Positions 5,157 to 22,397 of a DNA stretch of 32,000 bases are shown one piece after another (within the stretch, counting starts at the first letter, position 1; each line of letters begins with the position of its first letter). Source of the stretch: Nitrososphaera viennensis EN76 (GTDB lineage: Archaea > Thermoproteota > Nitrososphaeria > Nitrososphaerales > Nitrososphaeraceae); NCBI RefSeq assembly GCF_000698785.1, contig NZ_CP007536.1, forward strand, positions 1,860,001 through 1,892,000, in the 5' to 3' direction. The notes below the pieces were generated by a model. The model did not search any database, was not told where the DNA came from, and worked only from the letters and a program-made list of their open reading frames with translations. The position numbers and the translations under genes are program-made.

Positions 5157-6785
5157 ATGTCTGTAGAACTGGTCCGCACGGATAACAGCAGCCTGCTCAC
5201 GGGCATCAAGACGGATGCCGTGCTGTATTCCGAGACCCCGGGGTTCCGGGTGACCTGGATCGAGTGGGACAGCGATTTCCGGAACAGCGGCCTGCAGATA
5301 CAGGACCTTGTGGTAAGCGTGGACGGCAATTCTCTCGACCCTTTCTTAAAGCCCGGCAAGATGTCGCCCGGGATAGGCCAGTATGGCGAGTACATGTACT
5401 GGCAGCAGGTAGGGGCCAAGCCCGACCAAGAAATCACACTTGGCGTGCTGCGCAACGGAGGGGAAAAGGTGGAGATAAAAGGCAAGATCCATGCCTCCCG
5501 CTTTTATTATGACAGACAGGGCCGGCCTGCCATGGCGCCCGGCGGCCCTGCGCGCCTGTTCCCCAAGGATGATTTTTCCGACGCGTGGAGCAGCTGGTAC
5601 GAAAAGTTTGTCTGGAAGCTGTCCTACCTGCTTGACGGCGCCTGGGACAGGCATAACATCAACAGCAGGCAGGAGCTCAAAGAGCAGGAGGAGCACAAAG
5701 GGCGGATCGACTTTCTGCTCAAAAACTATCCCGGCCCGTTTGCGGATGCAGTCCTTGCAGACTGGACTGCGGCGATAAACCTCCTCAAGGGGAAAAAGGC
5801 AGATGATGTAGACCTGGAGTACAAGGAGCTTGGGGCAAAGCGCGTCGAGCTGGTAAAGCAGGAGGCTGCAAAAGCATGGAACGCCTTCAAGGGCGAGATT
5901 TCTGCTCAAACCATCCCCGTGTTTCCAGCCGCCAGGATAGACAGCCGCGACCAGTTCGCAGGCAAGATAGTAGAGCTTCCGTGGATAACCCCGCGTGACA
6001 ACATAATCAACGACCTTGGCAAGACGTACGCGGTGGTCGGCTCTCAGTATGACGGGTATTATTTCGTGCTGCTTTCGTCTCCCGAAGTGTACCGCTTTTA
6101 CGATGCGATGTACAGGTACAAGGCGCAGGTGAACCCGCGGCTTGGCGAGCGCTACCAGTACGTCGGCAGGATAACTGACGAACCGAGGATGATCACCTTT
6201 CGCGGGAGCCCTGTCAGCGGGCTTTTGGTACGGGCCCTTGCCGGCCGCGCGGGAGACGAAGAGCTTTTCGTGGACATGCGCAAGACAAACGAGAAGGGCA
6301 AGAGCGATTTTGCAGGAGAAGCCGCGATAAAGCCCAGCGCCGCAAGCATGCCCGGCGATGGCGCCTCGCCCGCGCAGGTCATGGGAGAAATGATCCGCGC
6401 AGTCAAGTTTGCAGACGAGGATTCGTGGAAAAAGCTGTTTGCAGGCTGGCGCGCAATAACGTACGACGACGGGCATTCCGTACTCGATTCGTCGTATGCT
6501 CCTTCGTCGTACTCGCTTTCCTCGGAATGGGAAAGGTCGCGGCAGGCCATAACAGGAAGCGTCTATGACGTGCGCGTGGACAAGGTCGGCCGCGTCAGGA
6601 GGATAATCAAATCAGACCCAGAGACCAACCTCCCAAGCGTCGATGAAGTCACCGTGTTTCTGGATCATTACGGGCTGTTTGATGGCGAGTACAGGACGTT
6701 TCTCAACCTCAATGTACACAGAAGGTGGACACTCCAGCGGCTCAACGAAGGGCCGTGGAAGATAACCAGCGTGCAGAGCATCTAA
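5157..6785 (+). CDS. Hypothetical protein, 542 aa, with an N-terminal PDZ-like segment
   Basis: This is a long ORF with ordinary soluble-protein composition. Residues about 40-110 (GLQIQDLVVSVDGNSL...ITLGVLRNGGEKVEIKGKI) have a PDZ-like pattern. There are no catalytic motifs, TM segments or signal peptide. The antisense ORF 5346..6476 has an implausible composition. Confidence 0.8.
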   Translation: MSVELVRTDNSSLLTGIKTDAVLYSETPGFRVTWIEWDSDFRNSGLQIQDLVVSVDGNSLDPFLKPGKMSPGIGQYGEYMYWQQVGAKPDQEITLGVLRNGGEKVEIKGKIHASRFYYDRQGRPAMAPGGPARLFPKDDFSDAWSSWYEKFVWKLSYLLDGAWDRHNINSRQELKEQEEHKGRIDFLLKNYPGPFADAVLADWTAAINLLKGKKADDVDLEYKELGAKRVELVKQEAAKAWNAFKGEISAQTIPVFPAARIDSRDQFAGKIVELPWITPRDNIINDLGKTYAVVGSQYDGYYFVLLSSPEVYRFYDAMYRYKAQVNPRLGERYQYVGRITDEPRMITFRGSPVSGLLVRALAGRAGDEELFVDMRKTNEKGKSDFAGEAAIKPSAASMPGDGASPAQVMGEMIRAVKFADEDSWKKLFAGWRAITYDDGHSVLDSSYAPSSYSLSSEWERSRQAITGSVYDVRVDKVGRVRRIIKSDPETNLPSVDEVTVFLDHYGLFDGEYRTFLNLNVHRRWTLQRLNEGPWKITSVQSI

Positions 6786-6918
6786 AAGTAAAAGAATATG
6801 CGAATATGAAAGGATTGAGCTTTACATTACTGCGAAGAAGAAGCTTTTGTAATGGTTATAGTAGTCTCCTTGAAATACTCGTGGGAAATCTTTTAAGTTC
6901 TCGTGCGGCCGGGAATGC

Positions 6919-7095
6919 ATGGGCTCGAACTCACGAAGCGAAGCCTTTGCTATTCCGCTGGAGATCGACGATCATTACAAACGGTACAGGAAGGAGCCGT
7001 GGGAGGTTGAATATGGTCAGTTTGGATACTGCGATCTGTGCAATTCTAGAATAGACGAATTCGGCTACTGTGCTTGCGGAGGCGCTGCTGACTAG
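6919..7095 (+). CDS. Candidate small Cys4 (CxxC...CxC) zinc-ribbon-like protein, 58 aa, not in the ORF track
   Basis: Own translation: MGSNSRSEAFAIPLEIDDHYKRYRKEPWEVEYGQFGYCDLCNSRIDEFGYCACGGAAD*. A TATA-like TTTTAAG (6891-6897) is centred about 25 nt upstream of the ATG. It ends 20 nt before the HExxH ORF. Confidence 0.4.
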   Translation: MGSNSRSEAFAIPLEIDDHYKRYRKEPWEVEYGQFGYCDLCNSRIDEFGYCACGGAAD

Positions 7096-7115
7096 CGCGC
7101 AAAATCGATCCATCA

Positions 7116-7802
7116 TTGTTGTTGTTTCTGACACGTTCTCTGGGGAGCGTTGATGATGTCGCTTTGATCTCCTCCAAGTATTTGACAGGGAAATATGGCG
7201 ACCCAGATTGGTTTGGACCCGTAAAATCATTGCTGGAGAAATCCTACGCTGCGGTACTTGATTCGCTAAACGATAAATCTCGGCTTCCATATCATCCCAG
7301 TATCTACCTCATTCCCTTTATGCTGTCAAGAAAATACAAGATAGGACACGATCTTGTGAGCTCATTTTTCTATAGTCTTTCATACCCGGATGCGACTGAC
7401 TTTAGCAAATACTCTACCTACATAGTCGCAAGCCTTGCAGAAAAGTTTCCGCAGCATATGACAGGTATCATCGCGCACGAGATCGCGCATATTATTGCAG
7501 CAAAGGGTGAAGTCAAAATAACCGAGGAAGACCTGCTGCTCATTTTAAAAAATAGGATCGAGTTCCTTAAAGCCAAAGAAACTATTGCTGAACATTACTA
7601 TTCATATTTTTCAGAACCAGTATCATCCAGCATCAAAAAATGGAACGAGATGGCCCTGTTGCCAGAGACTGAAAGAGAAGTATCTGAGAAGATGATAATA
7701 GTGGATCAGAAACAGTTCGATGCGCTGATCTTTGAAGAACGGCTACCTCAGTTCAGGGAATTTGTAAGGACAAAGCTTGAAAATATCAAAACGAGCTTCT
7801 AG
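7116..7802 (+). CDS. Hypothetical protein with an HExxH zinc-metalloprotease motif
   Basis: The motif reads GIIAHEIAHIIAAKG. The start is uncertain: TTG codons at 7116/7119/7122, first ATG only at 7320. The gene is AT-rich (hand count of line 7561-7620 = 19/60 GC). Confidence 0.6.
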   Translation: MLLFLTRSLGSVDDVALISSKYLTGKYGDPDWFGPVKSLLEKSYAAVLDSLNDKSRLPYHPSIYLIPFMLSRKYKIGHDLVSSFFYSLSYPDATDFSKYSTYIVASLAEKFPQHMTGIIAHEIAHIIAAKGEVKITEEDLLLILKNRIEFLKAKETIAEHYYSYFSEPVSSSIKKWNEMALLPETEREVSEKMIIVDQKQFDALIFEERLPQFREFVRTKLENIKTSF

Positions 7803-7934
7803 CATAGAATTATTTAGGATAATCAAGCATTTACTTAAAGCAAGCCTAACGAAAGCTAGATACGTTGTCCATTAACCGAGCATCTGCCTACTACTATCGC
7901 AGTATTTCTTTGAAAACCAGAAAAGATGTGTAAG

Positions 7935-8111: not shown

Positions 8112-9983
8112 TCATGCCGCATTGCTTTCATTCCTCTCGTTCCTCTTTACAATGGCTGCCGAACTGGGGTCCATGCTCTGCCACACCACATCATAGCCAA
8201 GCTTTGACACAAGCTCCGCATGGCACGATTCCGGGATTTCGTTTTGGGCAAGGGCCGCGCATGCGTCAGTGAACTTGCTGACGTCTGCCAGAAGGGGCCT
8301 CAGCCTGCCTGCCTTTGCCTTTGATACCAGGTGCGTCCCTGCCACCTCGATGTACTTGTCGCCATGATCCCGCAGCGCTATTTTCATTGCAACTTCTGGA
8401 GGCAAGGAAGGATTGCTGTCTTTACCCTGCCTCTTGACATCAACAATAACAATCTCGTCGATCGAGATGACGTCCTTGGCGCGATCAAGCTCTGCCTTCA
8501 AGTCGGGGTTGCTGACGCTCCGTTCCACGGTTTCTTTGTCGATGGATTTCAAATAATCCAGTATGGGCCTTACAGGCACCGCATCGCTTCCGTAAAGTAT
8601 CAGCCTGTCTTTTGGAATCAGGTGGATGGAAAGCGATGACAGCACTGCATTGGAGCACGCCAGGTCCTTGTTCAATGCGATGAACAATTCTGTCGCTGGC
8701 GTTGTTGTTGATGATGCTGCCGCATTGTAATTGCCGATGATGATGTCTGCCAGCTTCTTTAGCTTTCTTTCCAGGTATTCTGGAGTCCAGAATCCGACGA
8801 TTTCGAGATAGACCCTTCTGCCGTATTTTTCAAACATGAAATCCGGGATAAGGGCCCTGCCATCAGACACGATCAAAGGATCAGGCTCCCTGATAAGCTT
8901 CCAGCCTGCTGTTGCCGCAGCTTCGAACCTGCGCGCAAATTTTTCTTCAACAACGCTGTCAAAATAATCTGGAGCAAGTCTAGACCGCTGCTGTTGTCCT
9001 TCTTCTCTTCTGCTGCTTTCATCACCATTATTATTGTTGTAATAGAATGGATCCGTCAGCAGCAGCGGAGCTTCGGAATCCGACAGCTTGAACTCGTACA
9101 GCGTCTTTTTCCCTTCCATCGTCCTTCGCATGATCCACGCGTCGATGCTCCATTCGCCTCCCTTGGACAGGAAGACGATCGATGGAAGCAACTTGGCAAG
9201 GGCAGTTCCGTACCTGTCGGTCAGCCTGAAAAGGCTCAGGGGTCCTTCAATCGAGCAGACAACTCTGCTTCTCTCTCCATCTTTACTTTCTTGCTGCTGC
9301 AGAAGATAATACATCAGGCCGAGCCTTTTCACCTTCCTCAAAATGCGCTTCCAGTTCAGCCCGCCGGAAACAGAAAACTCCAGCTTTGTGCAATTGAAAA
9401 GCAAGGTCTGCACCAGCGCAAGGTTGTACCATCCGACCAGCGATTTTGCGTCAATCGTATCGAACTTCTCAAGGACCAGGTTGTCGTCCAGGTCGCTCCA
9501 CATGATGCTTGCAATGGCATCGGCAGAGAGATGCAGTCTTGATGCAACCAGATCGATAATCTCCTTTCTTTCCAGATCGGTTAGCGCAAACCCGCGCCTT
9601 GACGATTCTTCAAACAACGCTTTTCTGACTGTGGCCGGATCGCCAAGTGTGATGCTAGTGACGGCGTCGGCGCCAATGCTATTCTTGACAAACGACGACG
9701 ATGATGACGATGGCGATGACGACGTGATTGCACTTCCAAAAGTGCATCTCCTTTCAAGGAGCGCGCACAGCCCTCTTACGAGCTTGAAGTCTCTGTTGTG
9801 TTCCGATTCTATGTCGGATATCCTGCCGTCAAGTTCGGCCTTGCTTTCCCTGTTTTTCCACGACGCTTCAAACTCCTGAATCAGCCTTCCTGCAAGCTCT
9901 ATCTCTTCATCCCGGGTGCAAAACAGCGGGATGATGGACCCGTTTCTTGTCGTCCTGGCCCTGAGCAAAGGCGCGGCTAGCAT
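8112..9983 (-). CDS. bax1: Bax1 (DUF790) endonuclease, partner of XPB
   Basis: It lies immediately downstream of XPB and overlaps it by 7 nt. A PD-(D/E)xK-like nuclease core is present: ALIPDFMFEKYGRRVYLEIVGFWTPEYLERKLKKL. It is 623 aa and contains low-complexity S-, N- and T-rich inserts. Confidence 0.85.
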   Translation of the reverse strand: MLAAPLLRARTTRNGSIIPLFCTRDEEIELAGRLIQEFEASWKNRESKAELDGRISDIESEHNRDFKLVRGLCALLERRCTFGSAITSSSPSSSSSSFVKNSIGADAVTSITLGDPATVRKALFEESSRRGFALTDLERKEIIDLVASRLHLSADAIASIMWSDLDDNLVLEKFDTIDAKSLVGWYNLALVQTLLFNCTKLEFSVSGGLNWKRILRKVKRLGLMYYLLQQQESKDGERSRVVCSIEGPLSLFRLTDRYGTALAKLLPSIVFLSKGGEWSIDAWIMRRTMEGKKTLYEFKLSDSEAPLLLTDPFYYNNNNGDESSRREEGQQQRSRLAPDYFDSVVEEKFARRFEAAATAGWKLIREPDPLIVSDGRALIPDFMFEKYGRRVYLEIVGFWTPEYLERKLKKLADIIIGNYNAAASSTTTPATELFIALNKDLACSNAVLSSLSIHLIPKDRLILYGSDAVPVRPILDYLKSIDKETVERSVSNPDLKAELDRAKDVISIDEIVIVDVKRQGKDSNPSLPPEVAMKIALRDHGDKYIEVAGTHLVSKAKAGRLRPLLADVSKFTDACAALAQNEIPESCHAELVSKLGYDVVWQSMDPSSAAIVKRNERNESNAA

Positions 9984-11569
9984 ACGCTGTCGTCGTACAC
10001 CTCCTTCTTTGCGGTGTCATCATCATGGTTCTCCTGGATTCTCTTGAGGGCCCTCTTTCTCTTTGCGCTCGTGATGGTCTCTTCCCTGGTCGCAGAGGAA
10101 ACTATCTCGATTAACCTTGCCTTTTTGCTCCTGCTATTATCATTATCATCGTCGCCTTTTGATCCCAGCCCGCCTAGCTTTGGCCGGAGCAGCCTTCCAA
10201 GCCTCTGTATGAACTCTCTGGCGCTTCCGGTCCCGCTGACAATTATGCCAAGCTCTGCATCCGGCACGTCCACGCCTTCGTCAAGGACCTTTGACGTGAC
10301 GATGGCCATGTAGCGGCCCTCTTTAAAGCCCCTCAGGACGTCCTGCCTTTCGTCCTTGCCCGTCTTGTGGGTGATGAACGGTATGAGAAACCTGTTGGAA
10401 ATCTCGTAGACCATGTTGTTGTGCTGCGTGAAAATAATCGTCTTGGCGCCCTTGTTCTCTGCAAGGATCTCTTTCAGCTCTTCCAGCTTGGACTTGCTGT
10501 TTAGCGCAACGTTCGTGGCCCTGTTCCTTGCCAGCAGGGCTTCCCGCGCCAGCGGGTTTCTCCCGGACATCATTATCAGCTTTTCAAGCGAAATCGTATA
10601 GTATGTTGTTGTAGTCCCAATGCCTCCCAGCCTGTTCAGGCATTCGTGGTACCTTTGCATGCATGCCCTGTACTCGGCAAGCTCTTCCGGCAAGAGCTCG
10701 ACCCTTCTTCTTTCAACCTCGTACCGGGCAAGATGCTTTTGCCTTGCAAGCGCGTCGGGACTCACCTGAAACACAACGTCGCCCACGAGCCTTGGCAAAT
10801 CCCTGTGAAGATAGTCCTCGCGCTCAATCGTCGCGGTGAGCCCCAGCCTGAAAGGGGCGGCCATCTGCTCGGCTATCGTCCTGTAGCCGGGCGCCGCCAG
10901 GTGGTGCACCTCGTCAAACACGACAAGCGTGAATTTGTTGCCAAGAAACGCCGCGCGCAGGTACGCCGAGTCGTACGTTGACACCGTGATTGGCTGTATG
11001 TCCTCCGATCCGCCGCCCAGGTTTCCTATCTTCTTTTTTATCGTCGCGCCCGTAGCGGCAGCAGCAACAACAAAATATTTTGAAAGGACAGCCGTCCACT
11101 GGTCCACAAGGTCCAGCGTCGGGACGACCACCAGAGACGCGGCGTTTGCCTTTTCTATCGCCTTGACGCCGACGAGGGTCTTGCCGGAGCCGGTCGGCAA
11201 AACAACGCATCCTCTCAGGCCGGCGTTCACCCAGCTGTCAAATGCCTTTTGCTGATAGTCACGCAGTGACAGTAGTGGAGGCAATGGTGATGGTGGTGAT
11301 GCTGACGGTCGAGATGGCGAAAGGTCATTATTGTTATTGTCATTATTATAATGACGATCAAGCGGCAAGGTCATCATCACCGCATCTGAAAAAAAGACGC
11401 GGTCGTCGTACTCTATGCCGCTCTGTTTCAGGTACCCTACAATATTTGGATAGTACAGGGCTTGCGCTCGCAGCGCGTTTATCCTTGGGTCGCGTGTTGC
11501 AAACGGGATATGAGCAAGGCCCTCGATCACTATGGTGCCTCTGTCATACCTCAGTACGGCCTTGGGCAC
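9977..11569 (-). CDS. xpb: XPB/Rad25-type SF2 DNA repair helicase
   Basis: Helicase motifs are present: LPTGSGKTLVG (I), VVFDEVHHL (II), GLTATIERED (III plus the XPB-specific RED motif), TSKVLDEGVDVPDA (V) and EFIQRLGRLLR (VI). The start is GTG at 11569 (MPKAVLRYDRG). Confidence 0.95.
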   Translation of the reverse strand: MPKAVLRYDRGTIVIEGLAHIPFATRDPRINALRAQALYYPNIVGYLKQSGIEYDDRVFFSDAVMMTLPLDRHYNNDNNNNDLSPSRPSASPPSPLPPLLSLRDYQQKAFDSWVNAGLRGCVVLPTGSGKTLVGVKAIEKANAASLVVVPTLDLVDQWTAVLSKYFVVAAAATGATIKKKIGNLGGGSEDIQPITVSTYDSAYLRAAFLGNKFTLVVFDEVHHLAAPGYRTIAEQMAAPFRLGLTATIEREDYLHRDLPRLVGDVVFQVSPDALARQKHLARYEVERRRVELLPEELAEYRACMQRYHECLNRLGGIGTTTTYYTISLEKLIMMSGRNPLAREALLARNRATNVALNSKSKLEELKEILAENKGAKTIIFTQHNNMVYEISNRFLIPFITHKTGKDERQDVLRGFKEGRYMAIVTSKVLDEGVDVPDAELGIIVSGTGSAREFIQRLGRLLRPKLGGLGSKGDDDNDNSRSKKARLIEIVSSATREETITSAKRKRALKRIQENHDDDTAKKEVYDDSVC

Positions 11570-11601
11570 TGAGAAATTTTTGGCAAAAAAGCGTTAAAAG
11601 C

Positions 11602-12195
11602 CTATCCTGCGCGCCGCCCTTTTCCCTTTCTATCTATCCCTCGTCCGCTGTGCCCCCTTTCCTCTTCCAAGAGCGGGATTATCGGGTGCGCTATCCTGCC
11701 CTCGATGAATTCCGACACGCCTGTCTCGATCAGCTGCAGCGTGACTTTTGGGTCGCTTCGAAACCAGGCAAGCACGGACTCGTAAAAGGGAAACTCGCCT
11801 GGATTTGCGGTAGCCTTGGATGCCAGGCACTTTTCCACCATCTCTACCCTTTTCTCAAGCTCCAGTTCGTCCAGCGAAGCGGCAACTAGCATGCCCGCGT
11901 CGGTAAGGCGGAAGGACGGTATCCCAGACTCTTGCAGGGCCCGCGGCCCCATCTTTGTCTTTTTGCGGCCTGACTCTTGCACGATCCCGTTTGGCACGAG
12001 GCACTCTTCAAGCTCCTTAAAGACATAGCCGTACGAGTTGGAAAACGGCAGGCCAAGCTCGCGCGCCATGTCCTTTGCCACCGAGTTCCTAGTCTGGTCC
12101 GGAACCCTGGCCAATGACCTGATTATGCACCTTTCCTTTATTCCTCTAGAACAGATTCTGTTGCTGTTCTTGTACCTGGAGTTGATGCGGGGCAT
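11602..12195 (-). CDS. Uncharacterised basic protein with a putative wHTH, paralog A of 14109..14702
   Basis: The track ORF runs to 12213 with a TTG start; the first ATG is at 12195. It is clearly homologous to the ORF on the other side of amt, sharing the blocks AKxMARxxG, GIV, GPR, GxPxFRLxxxGMLxAxxLDE and TLxLxxxGxSxxxEGxxxHP. Confidence 0.7.
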   Translation of the reverse strand: MPRINSRYKNSNRICSRGIKERCIIRSLARVPDQTRNSVAKDMARELGLPFSNSYGYVFKELEECLVPNGIVQESGRKKTKMGPRALQESGIPSFRLTDAGMLVAASLDELELEKRVEMVEKCLASKATANPGEFPFYESVLAWFRSDPKVTLQLIETGVSEFIEGRIAHPIIPLLEEERGHSGRGIDRKGKGRRAG

Positions 12196-12490
12196 TGCAA
12201 GCGGCGCTTGCAAGACAGGTCAGTGCTAGTGTGTACTCGCATCTCGCTTTAATGAGTTTTGCATCCGGGCTGCCGTGATGCCAAAATTGTTATTGATTTC
12301 TGGAGAAAAACACAGAAAAGTCGTAAAATTGTTTCATTATCCTGAAAATAACGCTGATATCCGCTATGCAAAAACAAAGTGATCAGACTGCATACAAGAT
12401 TAAGATATTTTCATGGCTCTTTGTACAAATAATTATCATAACGCCTTCAAATAGGTCTATTATCAATTATTTATCATAAAAATTAAAGAA

Positions 12491-12500
12491 TTTTTTATAT
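12491..12500 (+). promoter_or_regulatory. TATA box of the amt promoter (TTTTTTATAT)
   Basis: It is centred about 27 nt upstream of the amt ATG (12523), at the end of a 309-nt AT-rich spacer. This spacing fits a leaderless or short-leader archaeal transcript. Confidence 0.5.
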
Positions 12501-12522
12501 GCCTTGGTGAAATAACGCAAAT

Positions 12523-14031
12523 ATGTCTAAACCAGACTGGCATCGTCTGTATACAATCGCCATCGTAGCGGTTGCATTCCTGGTGGTTTTAGGACTTTTA
12601 CAACAGCAACACGCCTTTGCGTACGCGCCCGACGACCCGGCCGTGCCATATCACTGCTGGCAGACAAACGAGGACGGCACCTTCAAGATTGTCGTCGATA
12701 ATAGTACTGGAGCCCAAAGCCTGGTTCCATGCGAGATCAATCATGGAGACAACGCATGGATGCTGACATCTGCGGCGCTCGTGCTTATGATGACTCCTGC
12801 AGGGCTGGCAATGTTCTATGCCGGGCTCTCAAGGCAAAAGAACGCAGTAAACACCCTTCACATGACGTTCATCACCACAGGCGTCATTGCCGTGCAATGG
12901 GCGCTCTGGGGATACAGCCTTGCATTCGGCCCTGACGCAGGCGGCTATGGCTTTATCGGGACGCTTGACTGGGCAGGCCTGCAGAACGTGCTCCACGACG
13001 TGCCCTCAGACGCGTACGGCGGCATAACGGGCTTTACAATTCCGCACATGACGTATATGGTGTTTCAGATGATGTTCGCCATCATCACGCCAGCGCTTAT
13101 CGTGGCGTCGATGGCGGAGCGCATGAAGTTCAGCGCCTTTATCATATTCATAGTGATATGGGCGACCTTCGTCTACGATTTTGCAGCGCACTGGACGTGG
13201 GAGATTACTGCGCCGGACAACTATGGGCGAAACCCCGGCTACTGCAACTTTGGATGGGGCGGATGCCTTGGCGCGCTCGACTTTGCAGGCGGAACTGTCA
13301 TCCACATCACGTCAGGCTGGTCCGGGCTTGTCATTGCCCTCATGCTCGGACGCAGGCTGGGCTATGGCAAGGTCCCGATGGAGCCGCACAACATCTCACT
13401 TGTGGTGCTCGGTGCAGCCCTGCTCTGGGTAGGCTGGTTCGGCTTTAACGCAGGCTCGGCAGCAGCCGCTGCAACAAACGCGACGAGCGCATTTGTGGCA
13501 ACGCAGATCGCTACAGGCATGGCCGCAGTCACATGGTCGCTCATATCGTGGGCCCACACTGGCAGGCCTTCGACAGTCGGAGCAGCGTCCGGCGCAGTGG
13601 CAGGCCTGGTGGCCATCACGCCTGCTTCAGGATTCGTGTCGCCCATGTCTGCAATAATCATAGGCATACTGGCCAGCATAGTCTGCTACGCTGCAGTAGC
13701 CTTCAAGAACAGGCGCAAGTGGGATGACGCACTTGACACTTGGGGCGTGCACGGGATTGGTGGCCTTGCCGGCGCGCTTTTGACTGGCATCCTTGCAGAA
13801 AAGAGGTTCACCCCGTGGGGAGACAACGGTCTTGCATTTGGCAACCCTGCCCAGCTCTACGAAAACGCGGCCGGCGCGTTTGCCGCAGTCGCATGGGCTA
13901 TGGGCCTGACGGCTGCCATCATCAAGATCATGGACCTGGTCTGGCCCGGTGGAATCCGCGTGACGCCAAAGGAAGAGGAAGTCGGCCTCGACCTTTCGCA
14001 GCACGGCGAGAGGGCGTACGTGACAGAGTAA
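12523..14031 (+). CDS. amt: Ammonium transporter (Amt/MEP family)
   Basis: The 502-aa protein has 11-12 TM segments and family signatures: DNAWMLTSAALVLMMTPGLAMFYAG, FQMMFAIITPALI, LDFAGGTVIHITSGWSGL, GWFGFNAGS and VHGIGGLAGALLTG. Confidence 0.97.
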   Translation: MSKPDWHRLYTIAIVAVAFLVVLGLLQQQHAFAYAPDDPAVPYHCWQTNEDGTFKIVVDNSTGAQSLVPCEINHGDNAWMLTSAALVLMMTPAGLAMFYAGLSRQKNAVNTLHMTFITTGVIAVQWALWGYSLAFGPDAGGYGFIGTLDWAGLQNVLHDVPSDAYGGITGFTIPHMTYMVFQMMFAIITPALIVASMAERMKFSAFIIFIVIWATFVYDFAAHWTWEITAPDNYGRNPGYCNFGWGGCLGALDFAGGTVIHITSGWSGLVIALMLGRRLGYGKVPMEPHNISLVVLGAALLWVGWFGFNAGSAAAAATNATSAFVATQIATGMAAVTWSLISWAHTGRPSTVGAASGAVAGLVAITPASGFVSPMSAIIIGILASIVCYAAVAFKNRRKWDDALDTWGVHGIGGLAGALLTGILAEKRFTPWGDNGLAFGNPAQLYENAAGAFAAVAWAMGLTAAIIKIMDLVWPGGIRVTPKEEEVGLDLSQHGERAYVTE

Positions 14032-14033
14032 GA

Positions 14034-14082
14034 GGAGGTGTGCCTCCAACCTCTCTCTCTTTTCCTCCTTTCTTTTTTTCTT
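14034..14082 (+). terminator. Putative amt terminator: short hairpin followed by a pyrimidine/T-rich tract
   Basis: GGAGG (14034-14038) pairs with CCTCC (14043-14047) directly after the stop codon. About 35 nt of almost pure pyrimidine follows, including T7 at 14073-14079. Confidence 0.45.
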
Positions 14083-14108
14083 GGTGGAAATAGTGGACAT
14101 ATACAGGC

Positions 14109-14702
14109 ATGCTAGCTACAACAACCCCTCCTCCATGCAGGAAGAAGAAGGTCTGGATCTTTCCATCAGGCGCCAGAGGGACGCTAAGGAAGAGGGGGGC
14201 CTACCAGCGCTTCATCGTCGCCTGCATGGCGCAGCAGGTGTCCAGCATCACCAAGAGGGTCCTGGCAAAGCAGATGGCCAGGAGATTCGGCATGTCGCTT
14301 CGCAACGCGTACACCCACACGTACACGGAGCTTAACGAAAGCCTGATCCCCGGCGGCATTGTAGAGCAGGACGGAGCGGTGCCGGCAACAAGGGGCCCGC
14401 GGATATTCCAGCTCGACGGCGTGCCGTGTTTTCGCCTGTCAGGACTTGGCATGCTGCTGGCCTGCTGCCTAGACGAAATCGACATCGACAGGAGGGCGCT
14501 GCTGTTCCGGCAGTACCTTGATTCTGACAGGTCGTGGCGGCGGGACCCTAGAAAGGATGAGCTGCTCTCCCACCTCAAGGCATACCCCGAGTTCACGCTG
14601 GAGCTCCTAAAGCACGGCGCCTCGCAGTACCTGGAAGGCAAGGCGGACCACCCGCTGTCAGCCTTTCCGACGCGAAAAAGAAAAAGCCCGGCCTCGACTT
14701 GA
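14109..14702 (+). CDS. Uncharacterised basic protein with a putative wHTH, paralog B of 11602..12195
   Basis: The 197-aa product aligns with paralog A over about 150 aa. In one hand-aligned block (VAKDMAREL...GIVQESG vs LAKQMARRF...GIVEQDG), 17 of 38 residues are identical. The antisense ORF 14201..14740 is rejected. Confidence 0.7.
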   Translation: MLATTTPPPCRKKKVWIFPSGARGTLRKRGAYQRFIVACMAQQVSSITKRVLAKQMARRFGMSLRNAYTHTYTELNESLIPGGIVEQDGAVPATRGPRIFQLDGVPCFRLSGLGMLLACCLDEIDIDRRALLFRQYLDSDRSWRRDPRKDELLSHLKAYPEFTLELLKHGASQYLEGKADHPLSAFPTRKRKSPAST

Positions 14703-14787: not shown

Positions 14788-15615
14788 CTACGGCCTTGCT
14801 TTTATCTGCCTTATGTCAAGCGTGTATTCGCTCCCGCCAGCTGCGAGGTAGAGCTTGTCGCCGGGCAGCACCTCAAAGTGGAGCACGTCGCCCTCGAGCC
14901 CCCTTGAATCAACGATGTGCCCGTCTATGCACTCCCTTGCATCCGGGCTCTTGCACTGCGCCTCTGTGGGTGTAAAGCGCGCAATCGCCATCTTGGTGGT
15001 GATTATTGAGTCGCGGCTCAGAATTACAAGCGTGCCCTTTTCGTTCTGGAGGTTCCACCCGGAAATTGCGGCCACGTTATTGCTGCCGCTGCTGCTGGCT
15101 ACTGCCTTAACGTACACCCTGGCCGAGTTTGCGGCTGCCTTGGAAACTACTAGGGTTGCCACATAGTCCTCCGGCTCTGTCTGGTTCGTGCTCACAGGAT
15201 ACGGCTCCAGGCTTGCCATCCTGACCGAATATTTACCATCACCAAACACCGCCGACGGTTTTTCATTGGCTCCGATAGTCAGCACGAACTGCCCCGCGTC
15301 GGTGCCGTTTACCTCGGCAGAAACCCTGATGCTGGCCTGCCCCTGCCATATGCACACCACGTCTGACGGGCATCTTGAATCCTCGGTGACGTTGAGAAAG
15401 CTGATGGCGATCTTTTCAGAATCGATAACTGCCTGCTGGCCTGTCTTCAGCTCAAACGGCTTGTCAAGCTTGGCAGGTATGATGGCGCTCTGCGCGTGAG
15501 CAGCAGAGAACGCGGACAGCATAACCAATGATGCGGCTATGATAAACGCTACTGATCTCAACAACAATGTTTCAGTACTCTCCTTCCATATAGGCCGTAT
15601 GGAGAAAAACTCCAC
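14788..15615 (-). CDS. Secreted or membrane-anchored protein of unknown function
   Basis: The N-terminal hydrophobic segment is signal-peptide-like (LLLRSVAFIIAASLVMLSAFSAAHA-QS). There is a Cys-containing block, FLNVTEDSRCPSDVVCIWQG. No catalytic motif was recognised. Confidence 0.7.
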   Translation of the reverse strand: MEFFSIRPIWKESTETLLLRSVAFIIAASLVMLSAFSAAHAQSAIIPAKLDKPFELKTGQQAVIDSEKIAISFLNVTEDSRCPSDVVCIWQGQASIRVSAEVNGTDAGQFVLTIGANEKPSAVFGDGKYSVRMASLEPYPVSTNQTEPEDYVATLVVSKAAANSARVYVKAVASSSGSNNVAAISGWNLQNEKGTLVILSRDSIITTKMAIARFTPTEAQCKSPDARECIDGHIVDSRGLEGDVLHFEVLPGDKLYLAAGGSEYTLDIRQIKARP

Positions 15616-16730: not shown

Positions 16731-17411
16731 ATGTCTGCTGACGATTCTTTACCTGCCGACGCGCCAAAGAAGGAAAGCGTCCTTGGAATAATGGACGACC
16801 TGCTGTCGCACCTCAACCGCACAAAGAAATTCTTCATGGCGCTGGTGATATCCTCCTTTGTAGTCGCGCCGCTTACGATCGTGCTTTCCATACTGATGCT
16901 TACACCCCAGTTTCTCGTCGGCGTGGGCCAGCCGCAGGACGTGGTGTTCTCCCCAAAGGCCGTCTTTTCCAAAGCTGCTGCCGTCCCCGCGACCGGACTG
17001 CAGACCGGTCAGCCAGCGATGATAACCGTCAAAATAATGCCCGGAGGCGAGATGAAAACGTTCAACATCACCGGCCTGCAGCAAGTGGACAAGGGGTCGT
17101 TTATCGTGGACAAGGAGCAGATCCACGTCGATTATGTGCCAGCAAACATGGCCGGTTTTGCAGTCTCGGCAGAAGGAGAGGTCAAGCCTTTGCCGCCCCG
17201 CTTTATGTACGTCAGCAGCGCGCCTGCCGCCTCTCCCTTTGACGTGACGTGGGTGATAGTGGCAGTGATAGCGGTGTCGGCGGCCGTGGCCGGCGCGTGG
17301 CTCCTCATCGGCATCAAAGAATATCGCTTTTTCTCGCACTGGAACAGCCGCTATGCAAACTACAAGGCGATGCAGGAAAAAGTAGACAAGGAGCTTGATG
17401 GCTCTAGCTAG
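16731..17411 (+). CDS. Membrane protein (2 TM with an extracytoplasmic loop), function unknown
   Basis: TM segments are FFMALVISSFVVAPLTIVLSILMLT and VTWVIVAVIAVSAAVAGAWLLIGI, with charged termini. The competing minus ORF 16749..17441 is His/Arg-rich and implausible. Confidence 0.6.
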   Translation: MSADDSLPADAPKKESVLGIMDDLLSHLNRTKKFFMALVISSFVVAPLTIVLSILMLTPQFLVGVGQPQDVVFSPKAVFSKAAAVPATGLQTGQPAMITVKIMPGGEMKTFNITGLQQVDKGSFIVDKEQIHVDYVPANMAGFAVSAEGEVKPLPPRFMYVSSAPAASPFDVTWVIVAVIAVSAAVAGAWLLIGIKEYRFFSHWNSRYANYKAMQEKVDKELDGSS

Positions 17412-18121
17412 ATGAGGTTGCCTGCATTGACCCTGAGCCACTCTATCCTTTTTTCATAGCTTGGCATGAACTTGTGGAGCAGGTTCCAAAAGTGGTGAGA
17501 GTGATCCTTTATCTCGAAATGGCATAATTCGTGCAAGACAATGTAATCAATGACATCCTGCGGCGCCTTTAACAGGTTTACGTTGAGGTTGACCGTGCCC
17601 GATTTGGTCGCGCTGCCCCACCTGTTCTTCAGGTCCTTGATTATCACTCTCTGCGGCTTTACTCCAAGCCTGTTTGCATAGAACTTGACCGAGTCTCTCA
17701 TGATCGGCATGGCGCTTTTCATGAGCCATTCCTGGTACAGCTTTCTGATCGCTTTTTCTGACGGGTTTTGAGACTTGGTCGTCGCCAGAAACTCGCCATT
17801 GACGAAGCGAAGCTTGTCCTGGCTGCGCCCGCCCATTATGTAGAGTGGATAATTCTTGCCCAAATATGGCAGGGTAGAGTCGGGCTTGAACGTGGGCCTG
17901 GCAATCTGGTGGGCCAGGCGCTTGTACTCCTGCTGCTTTTTGAGTATCCATTCCGCCTTTTTCTGGATTATTTTTTCAATCTCTTCCAGAGGCTTGTCAG
18001 GTGGCGTGCGGATTACCACCTTGCCTTTCTCGATGATTATCTCGGAGGTCTTGATCCGCTTGCCCCTGATCACCGTGTATGTAATGGTCGATTTGCCGTG
18101 CCTCGTTTTGAGCATCATCAT
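17408..18121 (-). CDS. DUF45/YgjP-like (M48-type) zinc metallopeptidase linked to the type I RM operon
   Basis: Motifs: RWGSATKSGTVNLNVNLLKAPQDVIDYIVLHELCHFEIKDHSHHFW (HExxH). Its ATG overlaps the hsdR stop by 4 nt. Confidence 0.85.
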   Translation of the reverse strand: MMMLKTRHGKSTITYTVIRGKRIKTSEIIIEKGKVVIRTPPDKPLEEIEKIIQKKAEWILKKQQEYKRLAHQIARPTFKPDSTLPYLGKNYPLYIMGGRSQDKLRFVNGEFLATTKSQNPSEKAIRKLYQEWLMKSAMPIMRDSVKFYANRLGVKPQRVIIKDLKNRWGSATKSGTVNLNVNLLKAPQDVIDYIVLHELCHFEIKDHSHHFWNLLHKFMPSYEKRIEWLRVNAGNLI

Positions 18122-21099
18122 AAGAGCCTCTTTGCCAGCTCCAGGACCTTGCGGATCAATTCATCGACCTTGTCCTCGGGAAACTTGTTGTCCGTCAAGA
18201 CATCGTATATTGCAGCACTCATCAGCCTTTCAGAGCTGCTTTTGCTTTTCCACCCGACAAGTTCTGTCTCGGGCTCGATCTGCTTGTAGATGGCCGCGGT
18301 AACCTGCTTGGCCGCCTCGTCATCTCCTTTTATGGGCTGGAGCTCGCCGTACACGGCAAACTCAAAGGGCGTTGAAAAGCCGAGCTTTTTGCGCTCCTGC
18401 TCTTCGTTGAGGGCGTCTTCAAGTATCTCCTTGTACAGGTCGAAAAAGTTTGCCATTTCCTTCCTGCGCAAGGCTTCTTCCTGTATCAGCTTTTCAAGGC
18501 GCTCCCGGAGCTTTTCATAATAGGCGGGATTGTACGCGGAAAACTCCTCTATTACCTGGCGCGCCTTGTTCTTGACAAGCGCAGTCCGGGCCCTCTCGTT
18601 CTTGAACTTGGCAACGTAACTGAGGAAATTGTGGTAGGTTATCTCCCTCGGGTCCAAAAGCTCTGATATGCCCGTTGCCCTGATGTGGTCGTCTATCAGC
18701 TGCTGGACCTTCTTGCCGTACTCGCGCAGGCTCGTTCCTGCGCCCTCGTAGTAGGTCCGTATCAGCTGCCGGACCTTTGACGCGTACTTGAAATCGTCGA
18801 TAAAGGGATCAGCTTCTTTCTTTGGCAGTATTGCGTCAAGGGCGCTTGAGAACGCCTTAAAGTCGTACTCGAACTTGTCCCTTGCTGCCGCCGGCTCGAA
18901 CTTTACTATAATTGCGTTGTCGTCTTTTTTGTCAATCTCGGTAAAATACGACATGACCTCCAGATGGCGCAGGCGCAGTTCCTCCAGCTCTTTTTCTGAT
19001 GGCTCTAGCGCTCCCTTGACGTCTTCTTCCTCAAATACTGCCAGCGCCTTCTGCAGCTCTTTCGTTATGCCGCAATAGTCCACGATGAGGCCATAGGTCT
19101 TGTTTGCGTCATACGGCCTGTTCACCCTGGCTATTGCCTGCAAGAGGTTGTGCTCTCTCAGTCCCTTGTCAAGGTACAGGACCTGCACGATGGGCACATC
19201 GTACCCTACAAGCAGCATGTCCACCACTATCAGGATCTTTGTCGGGTCGCCTGGGTCCTTGAACTTCTCTGACTCTTGCTCCCTCTGCTCTGGCGTAAGG
19301 TAGTACTGGTCCCAGCTGATGCCATCCTTGCCTTTTTCGCCAAGCTGCGATGTCATTATGATCTTGGAAGGCGGCGCATTGAGCTTGTCAAGCTCCTTCT
19401 TGTACGTGACTGCTGCTTCTCTTGATGAAGCGACGACCATCGCCTTGTAGCCGTTAGGCAAAATGTGCGTAGTGTAGTGTTTGACAAGGTCAAGGCAGAT
19501 CCTCTTTATTCTGGCCGGGGCCTCGGCTATCTTTTCTCTGGTCACGTACTGCTTTTTCAGCCTGTCCTTTGCCTTCTCGTCAAGGTCGATAAAGACGCGT
19601 TCAAATATCTGGTCGATGGTTGCGCCCCCTTCTACGAACAGTTCTGGCAGCCTCTCCTCGTACAGGATCTTGAGGGTCGCCCCGTCAGCCTTGGACTCTT
19701 CAAAGCCGTACTTGTCAAGGGCCGGCCCAAAGACGCGGTACGTGCTCTTATTCCTCTTGTCTATCGGCGTGCCCGTGAAGGCAAAGAACACGGCATTTGG
19801 CATCGCAGAGCGCATCGCCTCCGCGTTGAACTTGTACTGGGTGCGGTGCGCCTCGTCGACCAGCACGATCACCTTCTCGTCAGTGTGGATGTGGCTGGAC
19901 GAGGTGCCGAATTTCTGGATCGTAGTCATCACGGTCTTGCCTTTTGCGCTTTTCAAGAGCGACTCAAGGTGCCTGATGCTCTTTGCCCTGATCGGGTCCG
20001 GAAAGCCGCATACCTTGAACGTCTTTTCAATCTGCTCGTCAAGCTGCTTTCTGTCAGTTACTATCACTATGGGCGGGTTGCCGAACTTGTGCATGAGCTG
20101 CGTCGCAAACCACATCATGGTAAGCGACTTGCCGGAGCCCTGTGTGTGCCAGATGACTCCTCCCTTGTCGGAAATGTCCTCCTTGAGGTGGTTGAGCCTG
20201 CCTACTGCCTTGGTTACTGCCCTGTACTGCTGGTGCTTGGCTATCTTCTTGATTTTCTTGCTGTTTATGACCTCGTAAGTGACATAGTTTTTCAGCAGGT
20301 CAAGCAGGTGCGCTTTGTCAAGCATTCCGGCGATGAGGAACTCCTGCTCCCTTGGGGTTCGCTCGCACAGTTTTTGCACCTTTTCTGGCGTAAGCGGGTA
20401 GGATTCGGACCACCTGGCGTACTGGTTCACGCTTGCGCCGATGGTCCCGTGCCTTGCAAGCGTGCCGCAGGTGGCGATGAGAAAGTGGTTGTAAAAGAAC
20501 AGCCTGTCGTAGCCAAGCTCCCTGTCCTGGTACTTTTGAAAGTTCTTTGTAATCGCCTGCTCTATCGGGCTTGGGATGGATGGCGCCTTGCATTCGATTA
20601 TCACGAGCGGAAAGCCGTTTACGAATATCACGATGTCTGGAAAGATGGGCTGCTTGTAGCCGTCAAGCTGGAACTGGTTTGTGACGATAAAGTCGTTGTT
20701 TTCCGGGTTGTCAAAGTCAAAGAACCTGACCGTCTTTTCCTCCGGGCCGTTGCCAAAGTTCTGTGTTACTGTGATAGGTTCCAGCCCGCCGGACCTTGAA
20801 AGGCCGACAAGCTTGGCGCGGATCTTTTCGTTGGTGTCAGCGTGGTCAAGGTTGTGGGGAAAGTTTTCTTCTTCTATCTTGTGCAGGGCGTCCTTTACGC
20901 CGTCTTCGTCAAGCTCCGGGTTTAGTTTTCTGATTGCTTTTTCAAGTCTGTCATAGAGCAAGACTTGGCGGTAATCCTTTCTGGTTTTGTTGAGGTCTCT
21001 CTGGCTCAGGTACTGGTAGCCCATCCTGACAAGCTGCTCCAGGGCCGGGAGCTCCGACTTTACTGCCTCTTCATTGTTTTCCTTTACGTCAAAGGTCAA
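18118..21099 (-). CDS. hsdR: Type I restriction enzyme R subunit
   Basis: The 993-aa protein has an N-terminal nuclease region, helicase motif I (WHTQGSGKSLTM), the DEAH box (VLVDEAHRTQ) and motif VI (QAIARVNR). Confidence 0.97.
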   Translation of the reverse strand: MTFDVKENNEEAVKSELPALEQLVRMGYQYLSQRDLNKTRKDYRQVLLYDRLEKAIRKLNPELDEDGVKDALHKIEEENFPHNLDHADTNEKIRAKLVGLSRSGGLEPITVTQNFGNGPEEKTVRFFDFDNPENNDFIVTNQFQLDGYKQPIFPDIVIFVNGFPLVIIECKAPSIPSPIEQAITKNFQKYQDRELGYDRLFFYNHFLIATCGTLARHGTIGASVNQYARWSESYPLTPEKVQKLCERTPREQEFLIAGMLDKAHLLDLLKNYVTYEVINSKKIKKIAKHQQYRAVTKAVGRLNHLKEDISDKGGVIWHTQGSGKSLTMMWFATQLMHKFGNPPIVIVTDRKQLDEQIEKTFKVCGFPDPIRAKSIRHLESLLKSAKGKTVMTTIQKFGTSSSHIHTDEKVIVLVDEAHRTQYKFNAEAMRSAMPNAVFFAFTGTPIDKRNKSTYRVFGPALDKYGFEESKADGATLKILYEERLPELFVEGGATIDQIFERVFIDLDEKAKDRLKKQYVTREKIAEAPARIKRICLDLVKHYTTHILPNGYKAMVVASSREAAVTYKKELDKLNAPPSKIIMTSQLGEKGKDGISWDQYYLTPEQREQESEKFKDPGDPTKILIVVDMLLVGYDVPIVQVLYLDKGLREHNLLQAIARVNRPYDANKTYGLIVDYCGITKELQKALAVFEEEDVKGALEPSEKELEELRLRHLEVMSYFTEIDKKDDNAIIVKFEPAAARDKFEYDFKAFSSALDAILPKKEADPFIDDFKYASKVRQLIRTYYEGAGTSLREYGKKVQQLIDDHIRATGISELLDPREITYHNFLSYVAKFKNERARTALVKNKARQVIEEFSAYNPAYYEKLRERLEKLIQEEALRRKEMANFFDLYKEILEDALNEEQERKKLGFSTPFEFAVYGELQPIKGDDEAAKQVTAAIYKQIEPETELVGWKSKSSSERLMSAAIYDVLTDNKFPEDKVDELIRKVLELAKRLL

Positions 21100-22397
21100 A
21101 CTTTCACCCTGATTTGGCCCGTGAGGAGTTTCTGCATTAGACCTTTCTTTAACAACTCTAATTGTGATTTATGGTTTAGTTCTTGTTTGACCTTCGCAGT
21201 GATAGTATCCAAAATATCTGCAATTTTTCTTTGTTCCTCGATTGGCGGCATTAATAATGGAAGATGCGAATACTGCTCTGCGTTAACGTTAGGCTGAACG
21301 CCTTGCGTGAAGTTAGAAAGCAGCCATCTCCAATAATTATCCGAGTGTGTATAGTGGAATAGAAATTTTGCATCCAGTTTTGTCTCATCAGGTGTGAACT
21401 TAATTAGATAACCTGCAAAGGCGCATAAGCCATCCTCTTTGTTATACAAATATGTCTTTCCAACAGTTGCTCCTGTTCTGGCGAACAATATTTCGCCCTC
21501 TGACATTAGATAGCCATTAGCATCCTCTTCTGTTATTGAAACAGCCTCTGAGTTTAGTGATCCCTCATTGGTGATATCGGTGATTCTGATGTATCTTGGC
21601 AATGATGGATCGTATTTGACGGCAGCCACCGCGGCTCCGTACTGTGGTTTCTCTTTGCACAGGTTGATAAGCTTTGCAACATTCCATTCCATAGGCATTT
21701 CAAATTTCTTGCCAAAAAGAAACTTGATTGGTTTGAACTCCTGATGTCCAATCCCCTTTGTCAACAGCCTCTGCATCAGACCTTTCTTGAGCCGTTGAGT
21801 CTGTTCGATAATCTCATCTGTTTTCTGGATGAGGTCATCAACTTTGGAGAGGATTAGAGTGATTTTTTGCTGTTCAGGTATAGATGGAAGCCATATTCTT
21901 AATCTCTTGAGTTCATGTTTACCTATTCCAGATTGTCCAACATGCGTATTGCAAATTGATTTAAAGACTGATCTTTCTCTGTATCTTAGTAGGATCAAAT
22001 ATAGCCAATAGGGAATAACCTTGTTCTTATCAACCCGGATTCTTGTGATATGATTGGAAAATGTATATTCCAAGTCATCTCGGGCTATTGCAGTCTTGCC
22101 GATAAGATCTAGACTATTAGTATTATTGAAAAGGATGTCATCTTTCTTTATATCATATTCAGCCAAATCCGGTGGTTTTGGCACCTTAAGTAATTCCTCA
22201 AAGTTAAGCTGTCCATCTGAAGTAATGTTATTCATTCTCATTTGGACAACTCCGTTCGGATCTCTTTCTCCCGAAGCAAACCCTGATTGTATATTGGTTA
22301 TTACCGAATCTATATCGGTGACTAGCCAATCATGCGGAAGATCATAGATTCCAGTTGAAGTAAGATATGGGTATACAATTTCCTTTATCACTGTCAT
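21096..22397 (-). CDS. hsdS: Type I RM specificity subunit (two target-recognition domains)
   Basis: The conserved helical spacer is duplicated: LPSIPEQQKITLILSKVDDLI...LKKGLMQRLLTKGI and LPLLMPPIEEQRKIADILDTI...LKKGLMQKLLTGQI. There are 4-nt overlaps with both hsdM and hsdR. Confidence 0.9.
   Translation of the reverse strand: MTVIKEIVYPYLTSTGIYDLPHDWLVTDIDSVITNIQSGFASGERDPNGVVQMRMNNITSDGQLNFEELLKVPKPPDLAEYDIKKDDILFNNTNSLDLIGKTAIARDDLEYTFSNHITRIRVDKNKVIPYWLYLILLRYRERSVFKSICNTHVGQSGIGKHELKRLRIWLPSIPEQQKITLILSKVDDLIQKTDEIIEQTQRLKKGLMQRLLTKGIGHQEFKPIKFLFGKKFEMPMEWNVAKLINLCKEKPQYGAAVAAVKYDPSLPRYIRITDITNEGSLNSEAVSITEEDANGYLMSEGEILFARTGATVGKTYLYNKEDGLCAFAGYLIKFTPDETKLDAKFLFHYTHSDNYWRWLLSNFTQGVQPNVNAEQYSHLPLLMPPIEEQRKIADILDTITAKVKQELNHKSQLELLKKGLMQKLLTGQIRVKV

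Follow-up and report, generated by a model that had tools for sequence, protein, structure and literature searches.

A putative winged-helix regulator family encoded head-to-head with a glnK-less ammonium transporter gene in ammonia-oxidising archaea

Introduction

NrpR, the nitrogen repressor of methanogens, combines a winged helix with NrpR domains and keeps nif, glnA and amtB-glnK repressed until 2-oxoglutarate releases it; to our knowledge, it is the only well-studied archaeal precedent for control of ammonium-uptake genes by nitrogen status. A large part of global nitrification is carried out by ammonia-oxidising archaea, which are considered to owe their competitiveness to a very high substrate affinity. 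The present work concerns a stretch of 32,000 nucleotides (nt) from Nitrososphaera viennensis EN76 (NZ_CP007536.1, positions 1,860,001 to 1,892,000; hereafter the window, with positions counted from its first letter), in which an ammonium transporter gene, amt, stands between two genes of an unnamed protein family. Judging from the gene orders compared, one member of this family lies beside a glnK-less amt in nearly every ammonia-oxidising archaeon examined, and the family is the best current candidate for a regulator of ammonium uptake in these organisms.

The amt genes of ammonia-oxidising archaea respond transcriptionally to ammonium (PMC10432482; PMC11559005), and a 2023 review describes the regulation of ammonia uptake in these archaea as underexplored (PMC10432482). 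A literature search found no paper on the family, its genes or a regulator of these amt genes. An earlier note on the window had proposed that the two genes around amt form a regulatory or accessory module for ammonium uptake; what is retained here is an unnamed, paralogous winged helix-turn-helix family that is linked to amt and accompanied by no glnK, with the proposal recentred on the divergent pair of regulator and amt genes.

Two paralogous proteins of an unnamed family

The transporter gene (12523..14031, plus strand; 502 amino acids (aa), AIC16471.1) is preceded by the upstream paralog (11602..12213, minus strand) and followed by the downstream paralog (14109..14702, plus strand; 197 aa), whose product is a 100% match to an N. 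viennensis hypothetical protein. Since bax1 (8112-9983, minus strand) and xpb (9977-11569, minus strand) correspond to NVIE_022070 and NVIE_022080 in the published transcriptome table, the upstream paralog, amt and the downstream paralog are assigned by position to NVIE_022090, NVIE_022100 and NVIE_022110, respectively. As initially called, the two open reading frames (ORFs) give products of 197 aa that share 55 of 157 residues in BLASTP (35% identity, 59% positives, E 8e-35), which confirms that they are paralogs, as the earlier note had recognised. Both are basic, as likewise anticipated, with isoelectric points of 9.4 and 10.0 and tails rich in Arg and Lys.

Among the loci retrieved for comparison (designated by L numbers), the upstream-paralog orthologs in L084 and L086 have no ATG at the equivalent of 12195 and start at an equivalent TTG. 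Because this is the sole start that both possess, the upstream paralog most likely begins at the TTG at 12213, giving 203 aa, and not at the internal ATG at 12195; the ORF positions otherwise stand as originally placed. The earlier failure to assign the proteins to a named family also holds, as neither has a match in Pfam or NCBIfam, and a search of PDB sequences with a window protein gave a best match of E 0.25, with none significant. Pfam and NCBIfam scans of 27 relatives likewise yielded nothing meaningful, including no PadR match at E up to 1.

Association with amt across ammonia-oxidising archaea

An exhaustive profile search of 1.84 billion representative proteins with the family alignment (A1) recovered 95 representatives at E <= 1e-3, including 70 at E <= 1e-10. 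Wherever the source of a member was traced, it was an ammonia-oxidising archaeon, and the annotation was hypothetical. One member from this search, P0041, carries a ClpB/ClpX-like C-terminal domain (ClpB_D2-small, Pfam 7.7e-9), which probably reflects a chimeric contig or gene call and not a true fusion.

A locus scan with one genome per species found at least 453 loci, the best 80 of which are all from Nitrosopumilales. In 67 of these 80, amt lies directly upstream of the family gene and divergent from it, and in the remaining 13 the family gene is less than about 430 nt from a contig end, so that a head-to-head amt is present at every Nitrosopumilales locus with enough flank (67/67). Because Nitrosopumilales genomes are strongly syntenic, these are not 67 independent observations. 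The same pair occurs in a sponge-symbiont contig of 68% G+C, in L109 and in Cenarchaeum, as well as in N. gargensis, L084/L085, L091-L093, L095-L097 and L100, with intergenic lengths of 95-330 nt across loci; a family gene stands beside amt in the window, L084, L091-L093, L095-L097, L100, L103, L104, L107, L109 and L110. The pair is thus retained across orders and over a range of 18-68% G+C, although the family protein itself diverges considerably, soil metagenome lineages having 40-50% identity to the window in this protein as against 83-86% in Amt. On its far side, the regulator gene is accompanied in different lineages by genes for A-type ATPase subunit C, PRPP synthase, XPB or an ABC transporter, and since this neighbour differs by lineage, amt is the one constant neighbour. 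At the level of gene order, such variation around a constant amt is a stronger argument than the count of 67 loci. As the neighbourhood survey and the profile scans found, the family is enriched beside amt and belongs to no known unrelated family.

Several neighbours recur within lineages. At about 75 Nitrosopumilales loci, the family gene is followed on its own strand, about 65 nt downstream, by the ATPase subunit C (AC39) gene, and amt and the family gene are located inside or beside the A-type ATP synthase cluster in this order (L002-L081, L109-L111; for example, L110 1-6005), with an ATP synthase subunit I gene upstream of amt in L110 and L111. XPB and Bax1 were considered as real partners of the upstream paralog and rejected, the adjacency being confined to the closest relatives, L084 and L089.

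Predicted fold and conserved residues

In the AlphaFold (AF2) models, the two window proteins are built alike: a short arm of basic character leads into a winged helix-turn-helix, made up of three helices and then two strands with a long wing between them, and a helical C-terminal domain follows. The model of the upstream paralog (predicted local distance difference test score (pLDDT) 90.5, predicted template modelling score (pTM) 0.83) has helices at 22-36, 42-53 and 57-72, strands at 78-84 and 98-103, and then four long helices; that of the downstream paralog (pLDDT 86.3, pTM 0.80) has helices at 28-42, 49-60 and 64-79, strands at 85-91 and 105-110, and further helices thereafter. In both, the winged-helix core exceeds a pLDDT of 90 and follows the topology H1-(short strand)-H2-H3-strand-wing-strand, so the helix-turn-helix-like segment suspected from the sequence reappears in both predictions. 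The top Foldseek matches in the PDB are mostly winged-helix nucleic-acid binders, including MarR/ZitR/AdcR, PadR/LmrR, Fur/Zur/Nur, ArsR/CadC, IclR, RTP and histone H1. As these fold matches are weak, the proteins are assigned to the winged-helix class at the level of predicted topology.

Averaged over 41 family members, the net charge is +2.9 in the N-terminal arm, +6.6 in the winged-helix core and -2.9 in the C-terminal domain. In the same members, R34, T48, N66, Y68, G96, P97 and Q101 are near-invariant in all clades, and positions 95 and 98 are basic (R/K) in most. The near-invariant residues fall in two places, the N-x-Y that opens helix 3 and the (R/K)-G-P-(R/K)-x-x-Q of the wing. Both window proteins carry the family motifs N-x-Y, L-x-P-x-G-I-V and (R/K)-G-P-(R/K)-x-x-Q-x-x-G-x-P, with M replacing the first R/K of the (R/K)-G-P-(R/K) motif in the upstream paralog. 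Read on the predicted structures, this pattern of charge and conserved residues fits a nucleic-acid binder.

Constrained DNA between the divergent genes

In Nitrosopumilaceae, the start codons of the regulator and amt genes are about 127 nt apart, and across 37 loci the mean pairwise identity of the spacer is 0.73, compared with 0.47 at four-fold sites of the family gene and 0.69 at those of amt. Three blocks of this spacer are invariant or nearly so in the 37 loci. The block about 27 nt before the amt ATG fits an amt TATA box, and the central block, AAATATAAT.ATTTAC, lies upstream of both divergent promoters. The block overlapping the regulator's promoter holds the inverted repeat GTAACAT-N14-ATGTTAC and variants, which is found in 39 of 67 loci (shuffles, 0.03 of 67); in 38 of these 39, it lies 116-119 nt before the amt ATG.

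The corresponding region of the window (12214..12522) comprises 309 nt and is AT-rich, as first reported, with 33% G+C against 53% for the window as a whole. It aligns with L084 and L086 in conserved blocks. Three elements may be distinguished in it. An ATTAAAG box (12247..12253, minus strand), which precedes the TTG start by about 37 nt and keeps this distance in L084 and L086, is a candidate TATA box of the upstream paralog. The block TCTTTGTACAAATAATTATCATAAC (plus strand; 12417..12442), about 80-105 nt upstream of the amt ATG, is near-invariant in the window, L084 and L086 (alignment A3, columns 101-125) and represents a candidate regulator binding region. Finally, TTTTTTATAT (12491..12500, plus strand), centred about 27 nt upstream of the amt ATG, is kept in L084, with a similar T-rich box in N. 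gargensis; it is a candidate amt TATA box, which would imply a leaderless or very short-leader mRNA. A further motif, TGATAA, has three same-strand copies within 44 nt near the amt TATA box of the window and three copies in L084, and was considered as a shared operator half-site; it was dropped, with 20 occurrences against 9 expected over 24 lineages and none in L091, L093 and L100. In L084 and L085, a 50-aa ORF is called inside the spacer on the regulator strand (7781-7933 and 3995-4147, respectively).

A perfect palindrome of 19 nt, TTGCAAGCG-G-CGCTTGCAA, occupies 12195..12213 and covers the TTG start and the first six codons of the upstream paralog, where it is a candidate autoregulatory operator or 5' mRNA hairpin. 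It has a single match in the window, and one match is reached by 3 of 100 shuffles. The palindrome is identical in L084 and L089 and imperfect in L086, in which the changes still allow G-U pairs on the sense RNA, and a different palindrome occupies the same place in L090, L091 and L100. Its predicted RNA fold is unexceptional, with z of -0.6 to -1.3 (-1.2 in the window), except for L086 (-3.3).

The 77-nt spacer between amt and the downstream paralog (14032..14108, plus strand) contains a hairpin of 5 bp, GGAGG/CCTCC (14034-14047), and, after a further 20 nt or so, a stretch rich in T (14069-14082). In four other lineages, T-rich tracts are likewise found after the stop codon of amt, and spacers of 51-58 nt with pyrimidine/T tracts are found in L001, L082 and L087/88, with similar spacers in L091 and L100. 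The terminator postulated in the earlier note amounts to a weak hairpin and a T-rich run, which a scan for bacterial-type terminators did not flag; it is plausibly an archaeal oligo-T terminator, possibly overlapping the promoter of the downstream paralog.

Duplication of the family gene in Nitrososphaerales

A midpoint-rooted neighbour-joining tree separates a Nitrosopumilales clade from a Nitrososphaerales clade, and the latter divides into 'upstream' and 'downstream' subclades. Because both copies are placed as subclades of the Nitrososphaerales clade, the downstream copy appears to be the product of a duplication specific to this order, with the upstream paralog belonging to the ancestral 'divergent partner' clade. 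The full bracket of upstream copy, amt and downstream copy is present in the window, N. gargensis and the metagenome contigs L091 and L100, and by locus tags also in N. evergladensis (NTE_03343 and NTE_03345). A downstream-type gene lies directly 3' of amt at seven loci besides the window (L001, L082, L087/88, L091, L100 and L103), but none follows amt in the close relatives L084/L085 and L104, nor in L095 up to the end of its contig. The earlier idea of a flanking gene pair as a module is thus retained in part, since the family is tightly linked to amt, but what is conserved is the head-to-head pair of a single regulator gene and amt, and not the bracket.

The flanks of amt vary between close relatives. 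In L084/L085, the order is Na+/H+ exchanger, amt, upstream copy and XPB, and in L087/L088, from the same or sister samples, amt is followed by the downstream copy; the two amt genes have 99.9% DNA identity, and the similarity stops 5 nt past the stop codon. L104, a near-identical relative of N. gargensis, has an exchanger at the place of the genome strain's downstream copy (L103), and the amt1 locus of N. viennensis (NVIE_002420; region NVIE_002410-002460) contains an exchanger and ogg. These patterns in gene order fit recurrent recombination or gene conversion between two amt copies, by which flanks would be swapped. In N. gargensis (CP002408.1; L103 1449-2012), an amoC copy (PF04896) directly follows the downstream-type gene on the same strand as amt.

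A more distant arrangement occurs in L106 (5163-9689), a Nitrososphaerales-like contig of 38% G+C, in which a downstream-type gene is located between a P-II gene and an amt whose product has 57% identity to the window Amt. The downstream-type gene begins 494 nt after the P-II gene and is 1.6 kb from amt, in the other orientation, separated from it by a 233-aa gene of no assigned function. The same family gene, with a similar gene next to it, is also present on two short contigs, L101 and L102, which end before the expected position of amt; their apparent status as amt-less exceptions is largely resolved, as the L106 amt lies 1.6 kb away, past those contig ends.

The transporter and P-II proteins

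The window Amt matches Pfam Ammonium_transp (PF00909) at E 7e-117 over residues 78-499 of 502, so that the domain reaches the C-terminus without an extended tail. Its C-terminal sequence, WPGGIRVTPKEEE(I/V)GLDL(A/S)QHGERAYV, is acidic and hardly differs between the two orders. Of the three amt genes in N. viennensis, one is low-affinity (amt3, NVIE_023840) and the other two are presumed to be high-affinity (PMC7785015); the window gene, NVIE_022100, therefore belongs to the latter two. In these archaea, a long tail and an adjacent glnK belong to the low-affinity Amt type alone (PMC9277239).

In agreement with the earlier note, no glnK or P-II gene is detected in the window, where tblastn with E. 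coli GlnK and an archaeal P-II protein gives nothing better than E 0.9; the GlnK probe works, since it matches the P-II gene of L106 at 5e-10. No P-II gene was found in the first 88 loci retrieved or in the window, L106 being the sole locus with one, and the family therefore partners the Amt type lacking GlnK.

Proposed function and alternative explanations

We infer a regulatory function from the predicted fold, the charge pattern, the gene arrangement and the conservation of the intergenic DNA, and we consider it somewhat better than an even chance that the family is a local, DNA-binding transcription regulator of the glnK-less amt, probably autoregulated and dimeric. Under this model, the basic N-terminal arm and the winged helix would bind a site in the short shared intergenic region, with the conserved N-x-Y that opens helix 3 and the conserved (R/K)-G-P-(R/K)-x-x-Q wing making the DNA contacts, and the helical C-terminal domain would probably serve in dimerisation, sensing or both. 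The head-to-head placement of the regulator gene and amt would let a single bound complex serve both genes, autoregulating the regulator and setting amt transcription by nitrogen status. Following the duplication in Nitrososphaerales, in which the second copy usually lies just downstream of an amt copy, two related regulators would be available for two such amt genes. All of this is put forward conditionally, for DNA binding and its site as well as for the direction of regulation, the sensed signal and the interplay of the paralogs. In a more far-reaching version, which we think unlikely, the family would be the missing ammonium-responsive master switch, a lineage-specific sensor-regulator that sets the highly transcribed glnK-less Amt and perhaps also the amo and ATP synthase genes. 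It would then signal by way of its C-terminal domain or of one among the many P-II proteins, take the role played by GlnK and NrpR-type regulation in other organisms, and, in the soil lineages, form homo- and heterodimers from the pair with different set points for the two amt copies.

Several observations weigh against an amt-specific DNA-binding regulator. The fold matches are weak (best Foldseek E 0.08, TM about 0.3 over the whole chain), and RNA or proteins can also be the ligand of a winged helix, as Roquin ROQ and ScpB among the matches illustrate. No operator motif common to both orders could be defined, the inverted repeat of Nitrosopumilales being absent from Nitrososphaerales spacers; no second copy or half-site of the start-codon palindrome occurs in the amt spacer, and TGATAA is enriched in some lineages only. 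Nitrosopumilales are highly syntenic, with the ATPase gene after the regulator gene in most of the loci described above, and the family gene of L106 stands apart from amt. In addition, NVIE_022090 was about two-fold up together with xpb and bax1 under copper limitation, a condition that was reported not to affect the transporters presumed to be high-affinity (PMC7785015). This copper-limitation datum neither supports nor excludes the proposed regulation of amt.

Two alternatives leave the gene arrangement less informative. The first would be a DNA-binding regulator not dedicated to amt, with many targets in trans (for example, amo, ure, glnA, P-II genes and ATP synthase) or with the gene on its other side as target, such that adjacency to amt would mark just one target or the regulator's own regulation. 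This finds some support in the downstream type that stands beside a P-II gene and not amt in L106, the amoC copy after the N. gargensis downstream copy, the same-strand ATPase subunit C gene of Nitrosopumilales, and the shared response of the N. viennensis upstream copy, xpb and bax1 to copper limitation. However, the same-strand neighbour changes by lineage while amt is constant, XPB and Bax1 accompany the gene in L084 and L089 alone, and the invariant central block sits between two divergent promoters; we judge such wider targeting improbable, slightly more so than the master switch. It is less probable again that the gene order is simply inherited without functional coupling and that the family has a role unrelated to ammonium. 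Although synteny in Nitrosopumilales does inflate the counts, the pair has been kept across orders, over the whole range of G+C noted above and beside at least four different outer neighbours, and its spacer is under constraint. Moreover, the second copy came to lie beside an amt again after the duplication, and even the rearranged lineage L106 keeps the gene between P-II and amt.

The remaining alternatives concern what the winged helix binds. As a cytoplasmic partner of the Amt trimer, the protein could substitute for GlnK and gate transport through the conserved C-terminal tail without binding DNA. Such a role would suit a basic protein facing an acidic tail that is near-identical in both orders, and an amt that lacks glnK where the low-affinity type has it; winged helices can also mediate protein contacts, as illustrated by ScpB and MukE/F among the Foldseek matches. 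Yet divergent transcription and a constrained spacer are the signature of a regulator and its target, stoichiometric partners usually being co-transcribed, as in amtB-glnK, and NVIE_022090 is weakly expressed, at log2 of about 4.5-5.6 compared with 7.9 for amt1 in the same table (PMC7785015 supplement). The conserved residues are also predicted to lie on helix 3 and the wing, the usual nucleic-acid surface, and the partner evolves fast while Amt hardly changes, which together make an Amt-bound role quite improbable. Least probable of all, and in our view barely likely, is RNA binding with post-transcriptional action on the protein's own mRNA, amt mRNA or both, for instance via the start-codon hairpin. 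Palindromes at the start codon in three Nitrososphaera lineages, with different sequences and mismatches compatible with G-U pairing on the sense strand, would agree with it, as would the presence of the RNA stem-loop binder Roquin ROQ among the fold matches; but the hairpin energies are unexceptional outside L086, no such hairpin exists in L093, L095 or Nitrosopumilales, and most fold matches are DNA binders.

Other features of the window

On the minus strand (8112-12213), the upstream paralog, xpb and bax1 follow one another closely, with a 32-nt gap and then an overlap, and a single N. viennensis transcript may cover all three. Long low-complexity runs of Asn, Ser and Asp are found in XPB and Bax1. 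Four ORFs of 472, 542, 228 and 275 aa (3732-7802 and 14788-15615) have no Pfam match, and the ORF at 1753-2844 combines an Ada zinc-binding domain, an AraC-type helix-turn-helix and a methylguanine-DNA methyltransferase DNA-binding domain, representing an archaeal Ada-like adaptive-response regulator.

A complete type I restriction-modification system occupies 17408-23956, with hsdR (18118-21099), hsdS (21096-22397) and hsdM (22394-23956) all on the minus strand and a YgjP-like metallopeptidase gene adjoining it. G+C falls to 42% at 21-23 kb within this region, and in the related contig L082 an HTH_45 gene is followed by HxlR and proteasome genes without a restriction-modification system; the system therefore looks like an acquired island.

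Significance

The family is traceable to ammonia-oxidising archaea alone, has no name in the databases searched, and stands head-to-head with a glnK-less amt in both major orders. It thus provides a concrete gene for the question of how these archaea sense and control ammonium uptake, in taxa including Nitrosopumilus, Nitrosopelagicus, Cenarchaeum, sponge symbionts and Nitrososphaera. The family would merit a Pfam or arCOG entry of its own, and it could mark the glnK-less amt locus in metagenomes.

Comparison with known systems

NrpR resembles the family in being an archaeal winged-helix protein that controls ammonium-uptake genes by nitrogen status, a role that is proposed for the family. However, there is no sequence relationship, as 27 family members have no Pfam match and the two window proteins no NCBIfam match, and the family protein is much smaller (about 200-230 aa), with a short helical bundle at its C-terminus in place of NrpR domains. 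NrpR is also not encoded beside its own targets. The NrpR operator GGAA-N6-TTCC does not occur in 12214-12522; its one match in the window, at 22764, is of a kind that about half of the shuffles reach.

PadR- and MarR-like regulators share the order of an N-terminal winged helix followed by C-terminal helices, which form the dimer in the PadR and MarR families, and they are often encoded beside their target gene, like the amt-linked family. ZitR and AdcR (MarR), Rv1176c, LmrR and a Brachyspira PadR protein are among the best Foldseek matches. Nevertheless, no match to Pfam PadR (PF03551) or MarR (PF01047 / PF12802) is found at E up to 1, in a search that detects a genuine MarR-like protein elsewhere in the window (26529-27290), and the long wing with invariant G-P and Q, as well as the basic N-terminal arm, are specific to the family.

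GlnK and other P-II proteins are comparable in that their gene is kept beside an ammonium transporter gene and likely tied to nitrogen status. In contrast, their fold and size are unrelated (about 112 aa, trimeric and ferredoxin-like), the family has no PF00543 match and is transcribed divergently from amt and not together with it, and glnK accompanies the low-affinity Amt type in these archaea (PMC9277239). The divergent arrangement of bacterial LysR-type regulators offers a further parallel, with a regulator gene head-to-head with its target and a candidate site that overlaps the regulator's promoter and lies upstream of the target promoter; the protein family and the domain of life are different, the promoters are of the TATA/B recognition element (BRE) type, and the likeness is one of layout alone.

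The family is therefore closest to NrpR by role, to PadR- and MarR-like regulators by build, and to bacterial divergent pairs by layout, and it matches none of the profiles that define them. Though new and unnamed, the family is of a familiar kind, that of small winged-helix regulators encoded next to their target; its fold is predicted, its role as a local regulator of amt is slightly more probable than not, and its setting is ecologically important.

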